From the sequence record NC_029091.1: a DNA stretch of 64,000 nucleotides. One strand, given 5' to 3'. The position numbers and the translations under genes were made by a program. The stretch comes from Escherichia phage APCEc01. Below, one piece after another: positions 4,204 to 20,235 of the stretch (position 1 is the stretch's first letter; each line of letters begins with the position of its first letter). The notes beneath the pieces are model-generated. The model was not told where the DNA came from, did not search any database, and worked only from the letters and a program-made list of their open reading frames with translations.

Positions 4204-4473
4204 ATGGCTAAGAAAGAAGCAGTTGAATTTAATCAAGATGTGCATGGTGAAGAACTGGCTAAACTAGTCAAGGAAGCTTCCGATAACAAACTTAAAATTT
4301 CTGGTTATAATGAACTGATTAAAGACATTCGTACTCGTGCTAAAGAAGAGCTTGGTGTCGATGGAAAAATGTTTAATCGTTTGTTAGCTCTTTATCATAA
4401 AGACGCTCGTGATCAATTTGAAGCTGAAAACGAAGAGGTAGTCGAGCTTTATGACACAGTTTTCACTAAGTGA
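4204..4473 (+). CDS. dsbA: dsDNA-binding protein DsbA (late transcription enhancer)
   Basis: 89 aa from internal ATG with RBS gaggta; position between rnh and gene 33 as in T4. Confidence 0.7.
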   Translation: MAKKEAVEFNQDVHGEELAKLVKEASDNKLKISGYNELIKDIRTRAKEELGVDGKMFNRLLALYHKDARDQFEAENEEVVELYDTVFTK

Positions 4474-4789
4474 TATTAAACCGGTTGATGAGGCCGGTTT
4501 ATCTGAACAAGAATTAGCAGTAAAACACGATAAAGATGATATCGCTAAATTGCTTGACCGGCAAGAAAACGGATTCATTATCGAATCCATGGTTGAACAA
4601 TTTGGTATGTCTTATTTAGAAGCAACAACTGCTTTCTTGGAAGAAAATTCTATTCCAGAAACACAATTTGCTAAATTTATTCCTACAGGAATTGTTGAAA
4701 AAATTACAAGCGAAGCAATTGACGAAAACATGCTTCGCCCATCAGTTGCTCGTGGCGAAAAAACTAATACGTTAGATTTCTTATTATGA
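4451..4789 (+). CDS. 33: Late transcription accessory factor gp33
   Basis: 112 aa, MTQFSLSDIKPVDE... matches recalled T4 gp33; synteny. Confidence 0.85.
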   Translation: MTQFSLSDIKPVDEAGLSEQELAVKHDKDDIAKLLDRQENGFIIESMVEQFGMSYLEATTAFLEENSIPETQFAKFIPTGIVEKITSEAIDENMLRPSVARGEKTNTLDFLL

Positions 4790-5439
4790 TTAAAATACGC
4801 ATGCCTCCTGATGGAGAACGTTATATTAACGGAAAATCGGTATACAAACTATACTTGATGTGCAAACAACATTTTAATGGTCGGTATGACGTAATCAAAT
4901 ATAACTGGTGCATGCGTGTTTCGGATAATGCGTATCAAAAACGCCGAGATAAATATTTCTTTGAAAAACTAGCAGAGAAATATAAATTGAAGGAACTCAC
5001 CTTGATATTCATAAGCAACTTAGTTGCTAACCAAGACGCATGGATTGGTGAGATATCAGACGCTGATGCATTAGTTTTCTATAGGGAATATATTGGACGT
5101 CTCAAACAAGCCAAGGAGACGTTTGCTGAAGACGTACGTAACATCTACTATTTCAGTAAGAAAGTTGAAGTTAGTGCGCTTCAAGAGATATTTGATTATA
5201 ATAACAACGTTCAGTCGAGCTACATATTTAAATTGCTACAAAGCAATATAATTTCATTTGAAACTTTCTTATTGTTGGACTCGTTTTTGAATATTATAGA
5301 TAAGCACGACGAACTCACCGATAACTTAGTCTGGCAAAATTATTCTACCAAATTAAAGGCATATCGAAAAATACTTCAAATCGATGGAAATGTTGCTAAG
5401 AAATTGTTCATAGAAACAATCAAATCATGTAAGTATTAA
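4786..5439 (+). CDS. 59: Helicase loader gp59
   Basis: 217 aa, MIKIRMPPDGERYINGKSVYKLYLM... matches recalled T4 gp59; synteny. Confidence 0.85.
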   Translation: MIKIRMPPDGERYINGKSVYKLYLMCKQHFNGRYDVIKYNWCMRVSDNAYQKRRDKYFFEKLAEKYKLKELTLIFISNLVANQDAWIGEISDADALVFYREYIGRLKQAKETFAEDVRNIYYFSKKVEVSALQEIFDYNNNVQSSYIFKLLQSNIISFETFLLLDSFLNIIDKHDELTDNLVWQNYSTKLKAYRKILQIDGNVAKKLFIETIKSCKY

Positions 5440-11564: not shown

Positions 11565-11618
11565 GACTTTTTATTATAATTTACTCATGGATGAGTTAAT
11601 AACTAAGTGAGAAATATA

Positions 11619-12797
11619 ATGAGTACAGTTTTTAACACACAACAAGTCGATGTTTTGAATGAACCGATGTTCTTTGGTTCTGGTCTTGGCCTCGCACGGT
11701 ATGATATTCAGCGTCATAAAGTTTTTGAAGAGCTTATCGAAAAGCAGCTCTCGTTCTTTTGGCGTCCCGAGGAAGTAAACTTGATGTTGGATTCGGCCCA
11801 GTTTAATAAGCTTCCACAGTTCCAACAGGACATCTTTACCAACAACCTTAAGTATCAATCATTATTAGATTCTATCCAAGGTAGAGCACCATCTGCGGTA
11901 CTTATGTCATTGCTTTCAGACCCTTCATTAGATACATGGGTTGCTACATGGACTTTCAGTGAAACTATTCACTCTCGTTCATATACTCATATTATGCGAA
12001 ATCTTTATACAGATCCATCGAAGGTGTTTGATGAGATTGTATTAGATGAAGCTATTATGAAGCGTGCCGAATCTATCGGACGATATTATGATGATGTTCT
12101 GGTTAAAGCTCGTTATTGGGAAAACGCTAAAGCTGATATCGAATACCAAAAAGAAATTAATGCAGACGAAGACGTTATTGAAGATGCTATTGAGCATGAG
12201 ACATATTGGAAGCGTGAGCTAATGAAATCTCTTTACCTCTGTTTGCATGTTATTAATGCCTTAGAAGCTATTCGTTTTTATGTATCTTTCGCATGCACCT
12301 TTAACTTCCACAAGAATATGGAAATCATGGAAGGTAATGCCAAGATTATGAAGTTCATTGCTCGTGATGAACAGCTCCACCTCAAGGGCACTCAATATAT
12401 TATTCGTGCTTTACAAGATGGCGAAGACGGTGATGAATGGGTCAAAATTGCTCAAGAGTGTGAACAAGAAGCAGTTGATATTTTCATGGAAGTTAACGCT
12501 CAAGAAAAAGAATGGGCTGAACACTTGTTTAAAGATGGTGCTCTTCCAGGTCTAAATGTTAAAATCCTAAGTGAATTTGTGGATTATCTTACCGTGTCTC
12601 GTATGCGTAGTTGTGGTCTGCCATGTCCTCTTAAAGACGTATCAACTCGTCATCCTATTCCATGGATTCGTGAGTATTTGAACTCTGATTTGGTTCAAGC
12701 AGCCCCACAAGAAGTTGAAATCAGTTCTTATCTTGTCGCACAAATTGATAATGATGTAGACCAAAATGTAATCAATTCATACAAAAAATATTTCTAA
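11619..12797 (+). CDS. nrdB: Aerobic ribonucleotide reductase small subunit (uninterrupted, no intron)
   Basis: 392 aa from MSTVFNTQQVDVLNEPMFFGSG...; diiron/tyrosyl radical protein; track start 11607 is a GTG. Confidence 0.95.
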   Translation: MSTVFNTQQVDVLNEPMFFGSGLGLARYDIQRHKVFEELIEKQLSFFWRPEEVNLMLDSAQFNKLPQFQQDIFTNNLKYQSLLDSIQGRAPSAVLMSLLSDPSLDTWVATWTFSETIHSRSYTHIMRNLYTDPSKVFDEIVLDEAIMKRAESIGRYYDDVLVKARYWENAKADIEYQKEINADEDVIEDAIEHETYWKRELMKSLYLCLHVINALEAIRFYVSFACTFNFHKNMEIMEGNAKIMKFIARDEQLHLKGTQYIIRALQDGEDGDEWVKIAQECEQEAVDIFMEVNAQEKEWAEHLFKDGALPGLNVKILSEFVDYLTVSRMRSCGLPCPLKDVSTRHPIPWIREYLNSDLVQAAPQEVEISSYLVAQIDNDVDQNVINSYKKYF

Positions 12798-16180: not shown

Positions 16181-17266
<1,086 letters not shown>

Positions 17267-17267
<1 letters not shown>

Positions 17268-17948: not shown

Positions 17949-17978
17949 GTTTACAACATGGTGGAGTTGTGATACTAT
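17949..17978 (+). promoter_or_regulatory. Sigma70-type early promoter
   Basis: GTTTAC, 18 nt, TGaTACTAT; conserved leader ccaacaaatgaggaaa. Confidence 0.6.
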
Positions 17979-18006
17979 AACTCTACCAACAAATGAGGAA
18001 ATAGAA

Positions 18007-18243
18007 ATGCTAAGTGAAAACCCAATTACAGTACACGAATTTCAGATTAAAGTAAAAGAATTTGCTCAAGCACTCATCAATAAAGTGTCTGAACGTTTCC
18101 AAGATGCAACATTACGAGTTATTCAAGAATCTCCACGTTCTTTTCTCATAATCGTTAATCCTAAAGATGGTGACCAAATTACTAATCTTAAATTAGGCAG
18201 TGATGGTCTTGTTGAAGCAACTCGAGTATATGGAACACTATAA
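18007..18243 (+). CDS. Hypothetical protein
   Basis: 78-aa ORF with RBS gaggaa. Confidence 0.45.
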   Translation: MLSENPITVHEFQIKVKEFAQALINKVSERFQDATLRVIQESPRSFLIIVNPKDGDQITNLKLGSDGLVEATRVYGTL

Positions 18244-18363
18244 TGAGAGCTATCTCATTACTATCGAGAATGGTCATAAATCTGAGCACTACCAACTTAG
18301 CCTGTCTAATCCGGTTAAAGGTATTGTTGAATCAGAATCTGTTTATATCTCCTAAGGATTGTT

Positions 18364-19356
18364 ATGTTACCTGTCGTCGGAAAACTTATTTCTCCAAAAG
18401 AACTGGCTGAGATTATTCCTTTGTCGGAAGCTTACGCGTCACAAGTGGTTTCTCATCGCGAACAAGTTAATTCGATTATGAACGGTGAAGACCCACGCAA
18501 ACTTATTGTTGTAGGTCCTTGTTCAATTCATGACCCTATTGCTGCTGTTGAATACGGCAAACGTCTGGCTGAACTTCAAACTCGTCTTCCTAATGTTCTG
18601 TTAGTGATGCGCGTTTATTTTGAAAAGCCTCGAACTACCGTAGGTTGGAAAGGTCTTGTAAATGATCCATATCTTGACGGAAGTTTTGATATGAACCACG
18701 GTCTTATAGTTGCACGAACATTGTGTCGTAAACTTCTACGTATGGGACTTCCATTAGCAACTGAAGTATTAGACCCATTCACGATTAAGTATCTTTCTGG
18801 TATTTTCTCATGGGTTGCTATTGGCGCCCGTACGACTGAAAGTCAGACACATCGTGAAATTGCTTCAGGTCTACCGATGTGCGTAGGCTTCAAGAACGCA
18901 ACCAATGGTTCTATTAAAGTAGCTACAGACGCGATGTATAGTGCCGCCTGGCCTCATCGGTATATGGGTATGGACGTCGATGGTACTGTAGGCATTGTTG
19001 AAGCTGAAGGTAATCAGAATACGCATATCGTATTGCGTGGTGGGACCAACGGTCCGAACTATCATTCTTCTGATATTCAAGAAGCTTCTAACAAAGCAAG
19101 GGCAGTAGGTCTGAATCATTATGTAATGGTTGACTGTAGCCATGCAAACGCTGATGGGCATTATAGCAATCAAATTGGTATTGGTAAAAATTTAGCAGCT
19201 AATGATTTGGTCAAAGGAATTATGATAGAATCGTTCCTACATGAAGGAAATCAAAAAATTTCTGATAATATGTCCTATGGCGTTTCCGTTACCGATGCGT
19301 GCATCAGTTGGGAACAAACTAAAGAGCTGTTAACTTATATTAATAAGGTTCAATAA
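18364..19356 (+). CDS. 3-deoxy-D-arabino-heptulosonate 7-phosphate (DAHP) synthase, AroG/AroF-type class I
   Basis: 330 aa; motifs GPCSIHD, KPRTTVGWKGL, GARTTESQ, CSHANA, IESFLHEGNQ, TDACISW correspond to conserved and metal-ligand regions of E. coli AroG. Confidence 0.85.
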   Translation: MLPVVGKLISPKELAEIIPLSEAYASQVVSHREQVNSIMNGEDPRKLIVVGPCSIHDPIAAVEYGKRLAELQTRLPNVLLVMRVYFEKPRTTVGWKGLVNDPYLDGSFDMNHGLIVARTLCRKLLRMGLPLATEVLDPFTIKYLSGIFSWVAIGARTTESQTHREIASGLPMCVGFKNATNGSIKVATDAMYSAAWPHRYMGMDVDGTVGIVEAEGNQNTHIVLRGGTNGPNYHSSDIQEASNKARAVGLNHYVMVDCSHANADGHYSNQIGIGKNLAANDLVKGIMIESFLHEGNQKISDNMSYGVSVTDACISWEQTKELLTYINKVQ

Positions 19357-19937
19357 TGAAAGCTAGCACATACCTTCAGATTGCATATCTGATTTCTCAA
19401 GAATCAAAATGTTGTTCATGGAAAGTTGGCGCCGTCATTGAAAAAGATGGACGCATTATTTCTACAGGTTATAATGGCTCTCCTTCAGGTGGTACAAACT
19501 GTTGCGAACATGCATCCGAAAACGGTTGGTTGAAGAATAAACCAAGCCCGGTCATCGTTGCTGGTCATAAAGAAGGCACTACAGCATTTGGACGGGCAGA
19601 TAATTTTGTTTTGGCTAAAGAACATCGGGCCGCTCATAGTGCATGGTCTGCTAATAACGAAATCCATGCTGAATTGAATGCCATTTTGTTTGCTGCTCGC
19701 AAAGGTAATTCTATTGAAGGTGCTACGTTGTATACGACACTTTCTCCGTGTCCTGATTGCACTAAAGCTATTACACAGTCAGGTATTAAAAAGGTTGTAT
19801 ATGCAGAATTATATGACCGATCTCCTGAAAATTGGGCAGACATTCTTAAACAAGCTGGTATTGAAGTAATTCAGTACTCTCGTAATAATCTTCGTTCTCT
19901 GAATTGGGAACAAATTCGAAACTTTTGTGGTGAATAA
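19356..19937 (+). CDS. cd: dCMP deaminase
   Basis: 193 aa; zinc-binding deaminase motifs HAELNA and SPCPDC; same length as T4 cd. Confidence 0.9.
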   Translation: MKASTYLQIAYLISQESKCCSWKVGAVIEKDGRIISTGYNGSPSGGTNCCEHASENGWLKNKPSPVIVAGHKEGTTAFGRADNFVLAKEHRAAHSAWSANNEIHAELNAILFAARKGNSIEGATLYTTLSPCPDCTKAITQSGIKKVVYAELYDRSPENWADILKQAGIEVIQYSRNNLRSLNWEQIRNFCGE

Positions 19938-19938
19938 T

Positions 19939-20235
19939 ATGATTTTAACTGAACAAGAAACTATGGTTCTTCGTGAACGTATTAAAACTATTCTGTCTGT
20001 AGGCGTTCATTGTGTTGTATTTGAAAAGGCTAACGGTGATGTTCGTACGATGTTTGCCTCCCGCGATGAACTTGAAGTCAAATATGAAAATAACAATCCG
20101 GCAACAGAAGTTCGTTATGAACCTCGTGAATCAGTTCGAGCATTCGATACCAAGTTAGGTCAGTGGCGTTCTTTCCGCCTTGATAAAGTAATTTCGGTTG
20201 ATGGTACTCCGGTAGAACGTTTGCTTCTTATGTAA
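19939..20235 (+). CDS. Hypothetical protein
   Basis: 98 aa from the ATG two nt after the cd stop. Confidence 0.45.
   Translation: MILTEQETMVLRERIKTILSVGVHCVVFEKANGDVRTMFASRDELEVKYENNNPATEVRYEPRESVRAFDTKLGQWRSFRLDKVISVDGTPVERLLLM

Follow-up and report, generated by a model that had tools for sequence, protein, structure and literature searches.

The 64,000-nucleotide stretch of Escherichia phage APCEc01 analysed here (NC_029091.1; hereafter the window) encodes a DAHP synthase (DAHP being the 7-phosphate of 3-deoxy-D-arabino-heptulosonate), the entry enzyme of the shikimate pathway, in which the site that binds feedback inhibitors carries substitutions shared across a whole clade of phage proteins. 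We consider it likely, from these substitutions, that the phage enzyme is constitutively active and not inhibited by Tyr, Phe or Trp. The complete explanation, which joins the identity of the gene, its feedback insensitivity and a physiological role during infection, appears to us reasonably probable. The DAHP synthase gene itself is not new, being already annotated and catalogued; what is added here is the predicted natural deregulation of its allosteric site, the structure of the cassette that carries it and the existence of natural knock-outs. The gene is located as follows:

18364..19356, + strand: DAHP synthase coding sequence, type I-alpha, AroF-like, 330 aa, ATG start (profile, alignment and AlphaFold model)

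The initial annotation had described this frame as a complete 330-aa class I DAHP synthase, and the open reading frame (ORF), profile scores and fold match all agree with that description. The 330 codons are uninterrupted and the ATG is the earliest start possible past the upstream stop, so that a longer N-terminus is impossible. The protein matched the Pfam family PF00793 DAHP_synth_1 (252 bits against a cut-off of 25.5, E = 5e-75), thereby passing the family check that had been proposed for it, as well as TIGR00034 aroFGH, an NCBIfam equivalog, at 427 bits against a cut-off of 173, and PRK12755 at 454 bits against 343. The NCBIfam models for AroH and AroG scored below their cut-offs (386 vs 463 and 363 vs 568, respectively). 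The closest solved structures by sequence were E. coli AroF (6agm, E = 1.9e-104), the Neisseria meningitidis enzyme (NmeDAH7PS) and AroG (1gg1, 1.2e-90). An AlphaFold model with a mean pLDDT (predicted local distance difference test score) of 93.2 was superimposed by Foldseek on the NmeDAH7PS and AroG structures (4hso, 1gg1 and 1kfl) with a template-modelling score of 0.96 and a root mean square deviation of 1.4 A, and contained the (beta/alpha)8 barrel with the inserted beta6a/beta6b hairpin (strands 198-203 and 209-214).

The active site was examined by aligning 23 sequences of the phage clade with 98 of cellular enzymes and with the AroG, AroF and AroH proteins encoded by the E. coli K-12 genome; residue numbers are those of AroG unless stated. 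The motifs singled out in the initial annotation (GPCSIHD, KPRTTVGWKGL, GARTTESQ, CSHANA, IESFLHEGNQ and TDACISW) were each found in the translation, and its view that the active site is intact was upheld: all 28 catalytic positions checked, contacting the metal, phosphoenolpyruvate (PEP) or erythrose-4-phosphate (E4P), are identical in 23/23 phage-clade sequences. The four metal ligands C61, H268, E302 and D326, which correspond to C53, H260, E289 and D311 of the phage protein, are invariant in the 23 phage and the 98 cellular sequences alike. The PEP ligands R92, K97, R165, K186 and R234 are kept in every phage sequence, and so are P98, R99 and T100 of the KPR(T/S) motif that holds the E4P phosphate. 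The enzyme 3-deoxy-D-manno-octulosonate 8-phosphate (KDO8P) synthase has KANRS; the motif here is KPRTT instead. The gene product is thus almost certainly a DAHP synthase of class I (type I-alpha, AroF/AroG-like), and the enzyme is predicted to be catalytically competent, condensing PEP and E4P to DAHP.

The phage protein is 50.5% identical to E. coli AroF (PDB 6agm/6agl) and 46.5% identical to AroG (PDB 1qr7/1kfl/1gg1), and has its family, fold, metal ligands and PEP/E4P residues in common with both. It differs from them in a shorter C-terminus, in deletions of five and three residues near AroG 286-296 and 312-316, in the replacement of the inhibitor-site residues P150, Q151, D155, S180 and F209, and in an N-terminus that is 8-9 residues shorter. 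An N-terminus about nine residues shorter than that of AroG had been noted earlier; the shortening is real, and its exact extent is eight residues relative to AroG and nine relative to AroF.

To locate what sets the phage proteins apart, all alignment columns were screened without bias for positions at which the phage residue is fixed (at least 22/23) and different from at least 90% of the 98 cellular enzymes. The screen returned exactly seven positions, P150->I, Q151->K, D155->G, L156->I, S180->P, F209->Y and T223->A, and every one of them falls within the stretches of sequence that make up the feedback-inhibitor site. Ile, Lys, Gly, Pro and Tyr occupy positions 150, 151, 155, 180 and 209 in 23/23 phage sequences, where 91-98 of the 98 cellular enzymes have the canonical residue. 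Thus an inhibitor-contacting Gln (98/98 cellular) has become Lys and an inhibitor-contacting Ser (97/98 cellular) has become Pro throughout the clade. In addition, the N-terminal arm (AroG 1-8, including D6 and D7) has no counterpart in any of the 23 phage sequences. In the structure of AroG with bound Phe, the partner subunit has its inhibitor pocket completed by this arm. Engineering of the N-terminal domain reportedly gives feedback-resistant DAHP synthase (Zhang, 2014, cited in PMC5879953). From the alignment, the short N-terminus of the phage protein appears to belong to a clade-wide remodelling of the feedback-inhibition site. Scoring of the allosteric residues against AroG, AroF and AroH, a check suggested earlier, was run, with the outcome that the conserved inhibitor-binding residues are not kept and the arm is gone.

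Five of the seven positions have experimental evidence recorded for the E. coli enzymes (PMC9529685): AroG P150L, S180F and F209A/S are feedback resistant, Q151 (AroF Q152) and S180 (AroF S181) touch the bound amino acid, and D155 forms a stabilising salt bridge (PMC9529685). A gapless 100-residue segment alignment places AroG 151 opposite residue 166 of yeast Aro4, and ARO4 Q166K is an established and used feedback-resistant allele (PMC7513737, PMC5879953). The phage clade is therefore substituted at the same positions as the laboratory alleles (aroG P150L, S180F and F209A/S, ARO4 Q166K and the N-terminally engineered enzymes), and at AroG 151 it has the identical Gln to Lys change as yeast. 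Unlike those alleles, it combines several changes, and it was natural selection within a viral lineage that fixed them. Feedback insensitivity is predicted because of these inhibitor-site substitutions, the equivalence of Q151K and Q166K, and the loss of the N-terminal arm.

The same data bear on the simpler view that the gene supplies an ordinary feedback-regulated, Tyr-sensitive AroF-type isoenzyme and hence just extra DAHP synthase capacity. Several GenBank labels do read "aroF, Tyr-sensitive", AroF is the best solved match, the phage proteins have Gly at the position of AroG S211 and Pro at that of M147, as AroF does, the beta6a/beta6b hairpin is kept in the model, and a neighbour-joining (NJ) tree puts the clade beside enterobacterial AroF. 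However, that sister grouping has a bootstrap of 25/100, the NCBIfam AroH and AroG models score under their cut-offs, and the inhibitor Gln, the inhibitor Ser and P150 are Lys, Pro and Ile in 23/23 sequences that have also lost the arm; in experiments, inhibition is lost when these or equivalent changes are made (PMC9529685, PMC5879953, PMC7513737). We regard an ordinary regulated isoenzyme as unlikely.

We then considered how widely and for how long phages have carried this gene; here and below, comparisons of presence, absence and co-occurrence rest on the records among the matches listed for each search. A tblastn search matched the protein to 211 phage records, and in 138 of these the identity was at least 95% (Mosigvirus level). 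The 10 kb around it are 97-98.6% identical to many RB69-group (Mosigvirus) coliphages, and the protein is 99.7% identical to that of many deposited Mosigvirus genomes. Identity falls to 77% in Enterobacter phage CIP9, 76% in Edwardsiella phages PEi26/PEi20, 67-69% in Erwinia phage Virsaitis27 and Serratia phage X20, 68% in Escherichia phage EcS1, 67% in the F48-type Klebsiella phages (about 25 records), 61% in Providencia phages and 58% in Proteus phages. A search of 5.8 billion proteins separated the phage type (319-343 aa) from cellular enzymes (341 aa or longer), to which it is at most 55% identical, and intermediate members of the clade, P0020 and P0022, are encoded on T4-like contigs. The phage proteins are monophyletic (100/100 NJ bootstrap), with enterobacterial AroF as the nearest group at a bootstrap of just 25/100. 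The GC content at third codon positions (GC3) of the gene is 0.30, like that of the surrounding phage genes, vs 0.50-0.57 in E. coli aroF, aroG and aroH. Between genera, the ratio of nonsynonymous to synonymous substitution rates (dN/dS) is 0.13-0.24, with synonymous sites saturated. On these comparisons, the phage enzymes form an old, exclusively phage-borne clade under purifying selection, and a recent capture from the E. coli host is ruled out by the cellular identity of at most 55%, the phage-like GC3 and the AroF grouping of 25/100.

Matches labelled as phage at less than 50% identity were dismissed as a sign of wider spread. CAKLQH020000056.1, "Acinetobacter phage MD-2021a", is a 13-kb contig on which a 48%-identical DAHP synthase lies with cobS, cobT and a ribazole phosphatase gene; it is bacterial DNA filed as phage, and the apparent phage distribution is therefore inflated. 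The 38% match in Aeromonas phage HJ05 is unrelated, and the others are short unannotated contigs. Shigella phage JK45 (NC_054940) is labelled a Tequatrovirus, yet it is 98.6% identical to the window and carries the Mosigvirus-typical genes for arabinose-5-phosphate isomerase and gp52; its taxonomy label looks wrong.

Whether relatives were already annotated had been left open in the initial annotation, and they are, in many of the 211 phage records, in PHROG 5045 and in two genome papers. GenBank labels among the matches listed include "phospho-2-dehydro-3-deoxyheptonate aldolase", "aroF", "AroG" and "DAHP synthetase", and PHROG 5045, of the category "moron, auxiliary metabolic gene and host takeover", matches over the full length (E = 5.5e-182). 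The PHROG 5045 and GenBank proteins of Mosigvirus, Kanagawavirus, Marfavirus, Bragavirus and relatives are the same gene, with no difference of substance. A DAHP synthase domain is mentioned for ORF64 of phage phiC120 (PMC8022965) and for Kanagawavirus KLB31, where an auxiliary role in aromatic amino-acid metabolism was proposed (PMC11845039). In the literature searched, such domain-level mentions were found and no functional study of a phage DAHP synthase.

The surroundings of the gene suggest how it came to lie where it does. The features that matter are, in order:

16368..17267, + strand: pseT, polynucleotide kinase/phosphatase (HAD_PNKP/AAA_33; Pfam)
18007..18243, + strand: resident full-length cd.2 (DUF7320), RB69/T4 type (Pfam E = 1.5e-35; 65% identical to T4 cd.2)
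18230..18355, + strand: 41-aa ORF brought in with the cassette and representing the C-terminal half of a foreign cd.2 allele of Kanagawavirus/Marfavirus type (PHROG matches and identity)
18240..18252, + strand: left copy of a 13-nt direct repeat, ATAATGAGAGCTA, comprising the cd.2 stop and a cd-start-like ATG
18253..19365, + strand: DAHP synthase cassette, 1,113 bp, a mosaic of the foreign cd.2 3' half and the DAHP synthase gene (equivalently 18240-19352; blastn break points at 18252 and 19353 against RB69, moha and mar007P3)
19353..19365, + strand: right copy of the 13-nt direct repeat, ATAATGAAAGCTA, comprising the DAHP synthase stop and the true cd start
19356..19937, + strand: cd, dCMP deaminase (dCMP_cyt_deam_1; Pfam), whose start codon overlaps the DAHP synthase stop

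The placement of the gene between pseT and cd, as first described, is confirmed by the Pfam matches of both neighbours. When window positions 18000-19950 were searched by megablast, phages RB69, moha and mar007P3 matched in two pieces only. In these three genomes, the cd.2 stop directly overlaps the cd start, and the empty site holds a single copy of the 13-nt repeat that, imperfectly duplicated, bounds the cassette in APCEc01. The cd start ATGAAAGCTAGCAC is conserved across genera (PEi26, F48 and RB69). The 41-aa ORF matches PHROG 15876 (E = 4e-32) and positions 41-76 of PHROG 1504, and is about 60% identical to the cd.2 C-termini of PEi26 and F48 vs 32% to the resident cd.2. It is a partial second copy of cd.2 (SYLITIE...VESxSVY) standing beside the complete RB69/T4-type gene, and it appears to mark a scar of recombination between genera. 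The same slot, after pseT and cd.2 and before cd, is occupied by the DAHP synthase gene in F48, PEi26, phiP4-3 and one metagenomic T4-like contig.

As judged from these junctions, the simplest reading of the cassette is recombination between a pair of parental phages. One, an RB69-like backbone in which cd.2 adjoins cd, would have crossed with a member of a different T4-like genus, where cd.2'-DAHP synthase-cd is the native arrangement. The right crossover would have been homologous, inside cd, and the left one illegitimate, at the microhomology GA(A/G)AGCTA, and together they would leave behind part of a second cd.2 and two copies of the cd start. A deletion between the repeats could restore the empty site, and polarity is therefore uncertain for any individual genome.

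By the counts, about 138 Mosigvirus-level records out of about 150 have the cassette, some of the cassette-less records being partial genomes; three absences were directly verified, namely RB69, moha and mar007P3. Cassette-plus and cassette-minus phages thus coexist within one genus. Because RB69, moha and mar007P3 are without the cassette, DAHP synthase is dispensable, and it is unneeded for DNA arabinosylation. It is accessory, as the initial annotation had proposed, RB69 itself being without it; we take it to be a fitness gene and not an essential one, and it has both marks of an auxiliary metabolic gene, patchy presence among close relatives and a cellular homologue.

These data could also be read as those of a near-neutral passenger, or moron, spread by recombination with no significant role in infection, or of a protein with a moonlighting, non-catalytic role. 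The pseT-cd region is plastic and full of small ORFs, the gene moved as a cassette, and its presence is polymorphic inside one genus. Nevertheless, the gene is intact in 211/211 records (at least 80% coverage each), its active site is perfectly conserved, and five or more genera have kept it in one and the same slot. It is under strong purifying selection across genera whose synonymous divergence is saturated, and about 138 of about 150 Mosigvirus-level records carry it. A passenger or non-catalytic role seems to us quite improbable.

In our model, the phage DAHP synthase would open the shikimate pathway as an enzyme that is constitutively active and insensitive to feedback, bypassing both host TyrR/TrpR repression and end-product inhibition by Tyr, Phe and Trp. 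Carbon would then flow via the remaining shikimate enzymes of the host to chorismate, aromatic amino acids and chorismate-derived cofactors, and the benefit would be that aromatics and cofactors are sustained for phage production when their supply is limiting. The initial annotation had likewise suggested that the gene might raise the flux of E4P and PEP into aromatics. Whether this is the physiological role during infection we hold to be evenly balanced. The concept has a parallel in cyanophages, in which auxiliary metabolic genes such as talC, CP12 and zwf/gnd rewire central carbon metabolism, again through virus-borne, host-derived enzymes at flux-controlling steps; the pathway differs, the step here being entry into the shikimate pathway, and the hosts here are Enterobacterales. 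If the model is right, phages have come by evolution to carry fixed changes of the kind with which metabolic engineers deregulate DAHP synthase, the protein is a natural, compact (330 aa) and possibly fully feedback-insensitive type I-alpha enzyme, and we have here a clear case in which a coliphage overrides the amino-acid feedback control of its host. The existence in nature of Mosigviruses with and without the cassette (for example this phage vs RB69 or moha) makes the role directly testable.

Several observations weigh against this model. The block equivalent to AroG 136-180 shows no decay and is near-invariant in phages, with an entropy of 0.00-0.08 vs 0.16-0.67 in cellular enzymes, while blocks outside it are similarly diverse in the phage clade and in cellular enzymes. 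A frozen effector-site block fits an enzyme locked in the active conformation, but it also fits a site that has acquired a new ligand or partner. Two of the substitutions, F209Y and L156I, are conservative. The literature searched gives neither an enzyme assay nor an infection phenotype for any phage DAHP synthase, and the downstream shikimate enzymes are not encoded within the 64-kb window. Finally, RB69, moha and mar007P3 grow without the gene, so that any benefit must be conditional. In the phage protein, the block corresponds to residues 128-171, and its near-invariance extends across phage genera whose enzymes are just 55-77% identical overall.

RB69-group phages replace cytosine in their DNA by arabinosylated 5-hydroxycytosine, for which NDP-arabinose (nucleoside diphosphate arabinose) is made from ribulose-5-phosphate by gp55, an arabinose-5-phosphate isomerase, and gp52/53 (PMC13326640). 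Because E4P is an intermediate of the pentose phosphate pathway, co-occurrence of the DAHP synthase gene with this sugar module was examined. The enzyme could be coupled to pentose-based DNA hypermodification: irreversible removal of E4P would pull transketolase and transaldolase toward pentose phosphates, or relieve inhibition by E4P, while ribulose-5-phosphate is drained into NDP-arabinose, and an intermediate of the pathway might be detected by the rebuilt effector site. Every DAHP synthase-positive T4-like lineage checked has a homologue of RB69 gp52 (sugar-1-phosphate nucleotidyltransferase/kinase), these being Mosigvirus, CIP9, EcS1, LC53-type Serratia phages, PEi20, and the Klebsiella and Proteus phages. 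Record counts of the two genes are equal in Klebsiella phages (25 each, kv_tblp8 being in both sets) and in Proteus phages (seven each), most of the positive lineages also have arabinose-5-phosphate isomerase, and T4 is without DAHP synthase, gp52 homologue and isomerase alike. The hyper-conserved, non-degenerate effector-site block would also suit such a coupling.

RB69 nonetheless counts against coupling of this kind, as its DNA is arabinosylated (PMC13326640, PMC6024577) without a DAHP synthase. The sugar module likewise occurs without the gene in Acinetobacter phages (57 records), Bp7/IME08/QL01 coliphages, Yersinia phage TG1 and Shewanella phage Thanatos, and Klebsiella phages have DAHP synthase without arabinose-5-phosphate isomerase. 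The nesting is accounted for no less well by common descent from a single acquisition in a conserved slot. A strict link between DAHP synthase and arabinosylation was rejected, given that isomerase and DAHP synthase overlap yet are not congruent (Klebsiella phages, Acinetobacter phages and RB69), and we consider even the looser coupling quite unlikely. It is more doubtful still that the rebuilt effector site binds a new infection-specific ligand or partner and makes the enzyme a regulated E4P sink coordinating pentose-phosphate flow with DNA hypermodification, a reading that draws on the effector block being more conserved than in cellular enzymes and on DAHP synthase occurring only with a gp52-type NDP-sugar module in the lineages checked. 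Among the matches listed, DAHP synthase-positive T4-like lineages are apparently a strict subset of the carriers of gp52-like genes. The Klebsiella F48-type phages combine a gp52-like gene (43% identity) and DAHP synthase with no arabinose-5-phosphate isomerase, and this gene set hints at a different sugar modification.

Two further features bear on the expression of the deregulated enzyme that we favour:

18353..18358, + strand: Shine-Dalgarno sequence TAAGGA, 5 nt before the DAHP synthase ATG (sequence reading)
17950..17978, + strand: sigma-70-like promoter match TTTACA-17-TACTAT with an extended TG, 5' of cd.2 (consensus scan; putative function)

The promoter match sits where the T4 annotation has an early promoter, between cd.3 and cd.2. 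A consensus scan found no + strand terminator before cd, and an Rfam scan of the window returned no RNA family at gathering score. From the Shine-Dalgarno sequence, the stop/start overlap with cd, the promoter match and the empty terminator scan we infer early expression, and DAHP synthase is most likely co-transcribed early with cd.2 and cd. The interval from pseT to DAHP synthase holds five small ORFs, cd.2 among them.

In T4, the slot is filled by an unrelated 112-aa gene, cd.1, and the T4 annotation contains no DAHP synthase, in agreement with the initial annotation. A remnant of cd.1 was sought in the cassette and none was found there, so that this idea was dropped. In Proteus phage phiP4-3, ORF 053 (4457-4795), which follows DAHP synthase, has by eye a cd.1-like C-terminus (NRFKD...YLV shared with T4 cd.1); given such an ORF after DAHP synthase in Bragavirus, the native slot of the gene would be cd.2-cd.1. 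Mosigvirus has lost cd.1 altogether.

Beyond cd, the next ORF (19927-20235), which starts at a GTG overlapping the 3' end of cd, is 31.1-like and has a WYL_2/Sm-like SH3 domain (Pfam E = 3.7e-9). At nrdB (11607-12797), Rfam detected no group I intron in the window, where the gene is one intact 396-aa ORF; in JK45 (NC_054940 142311-144580), nrdB is interrupted by inserted DNA that codes for an "intron-like DNA endonuclease".

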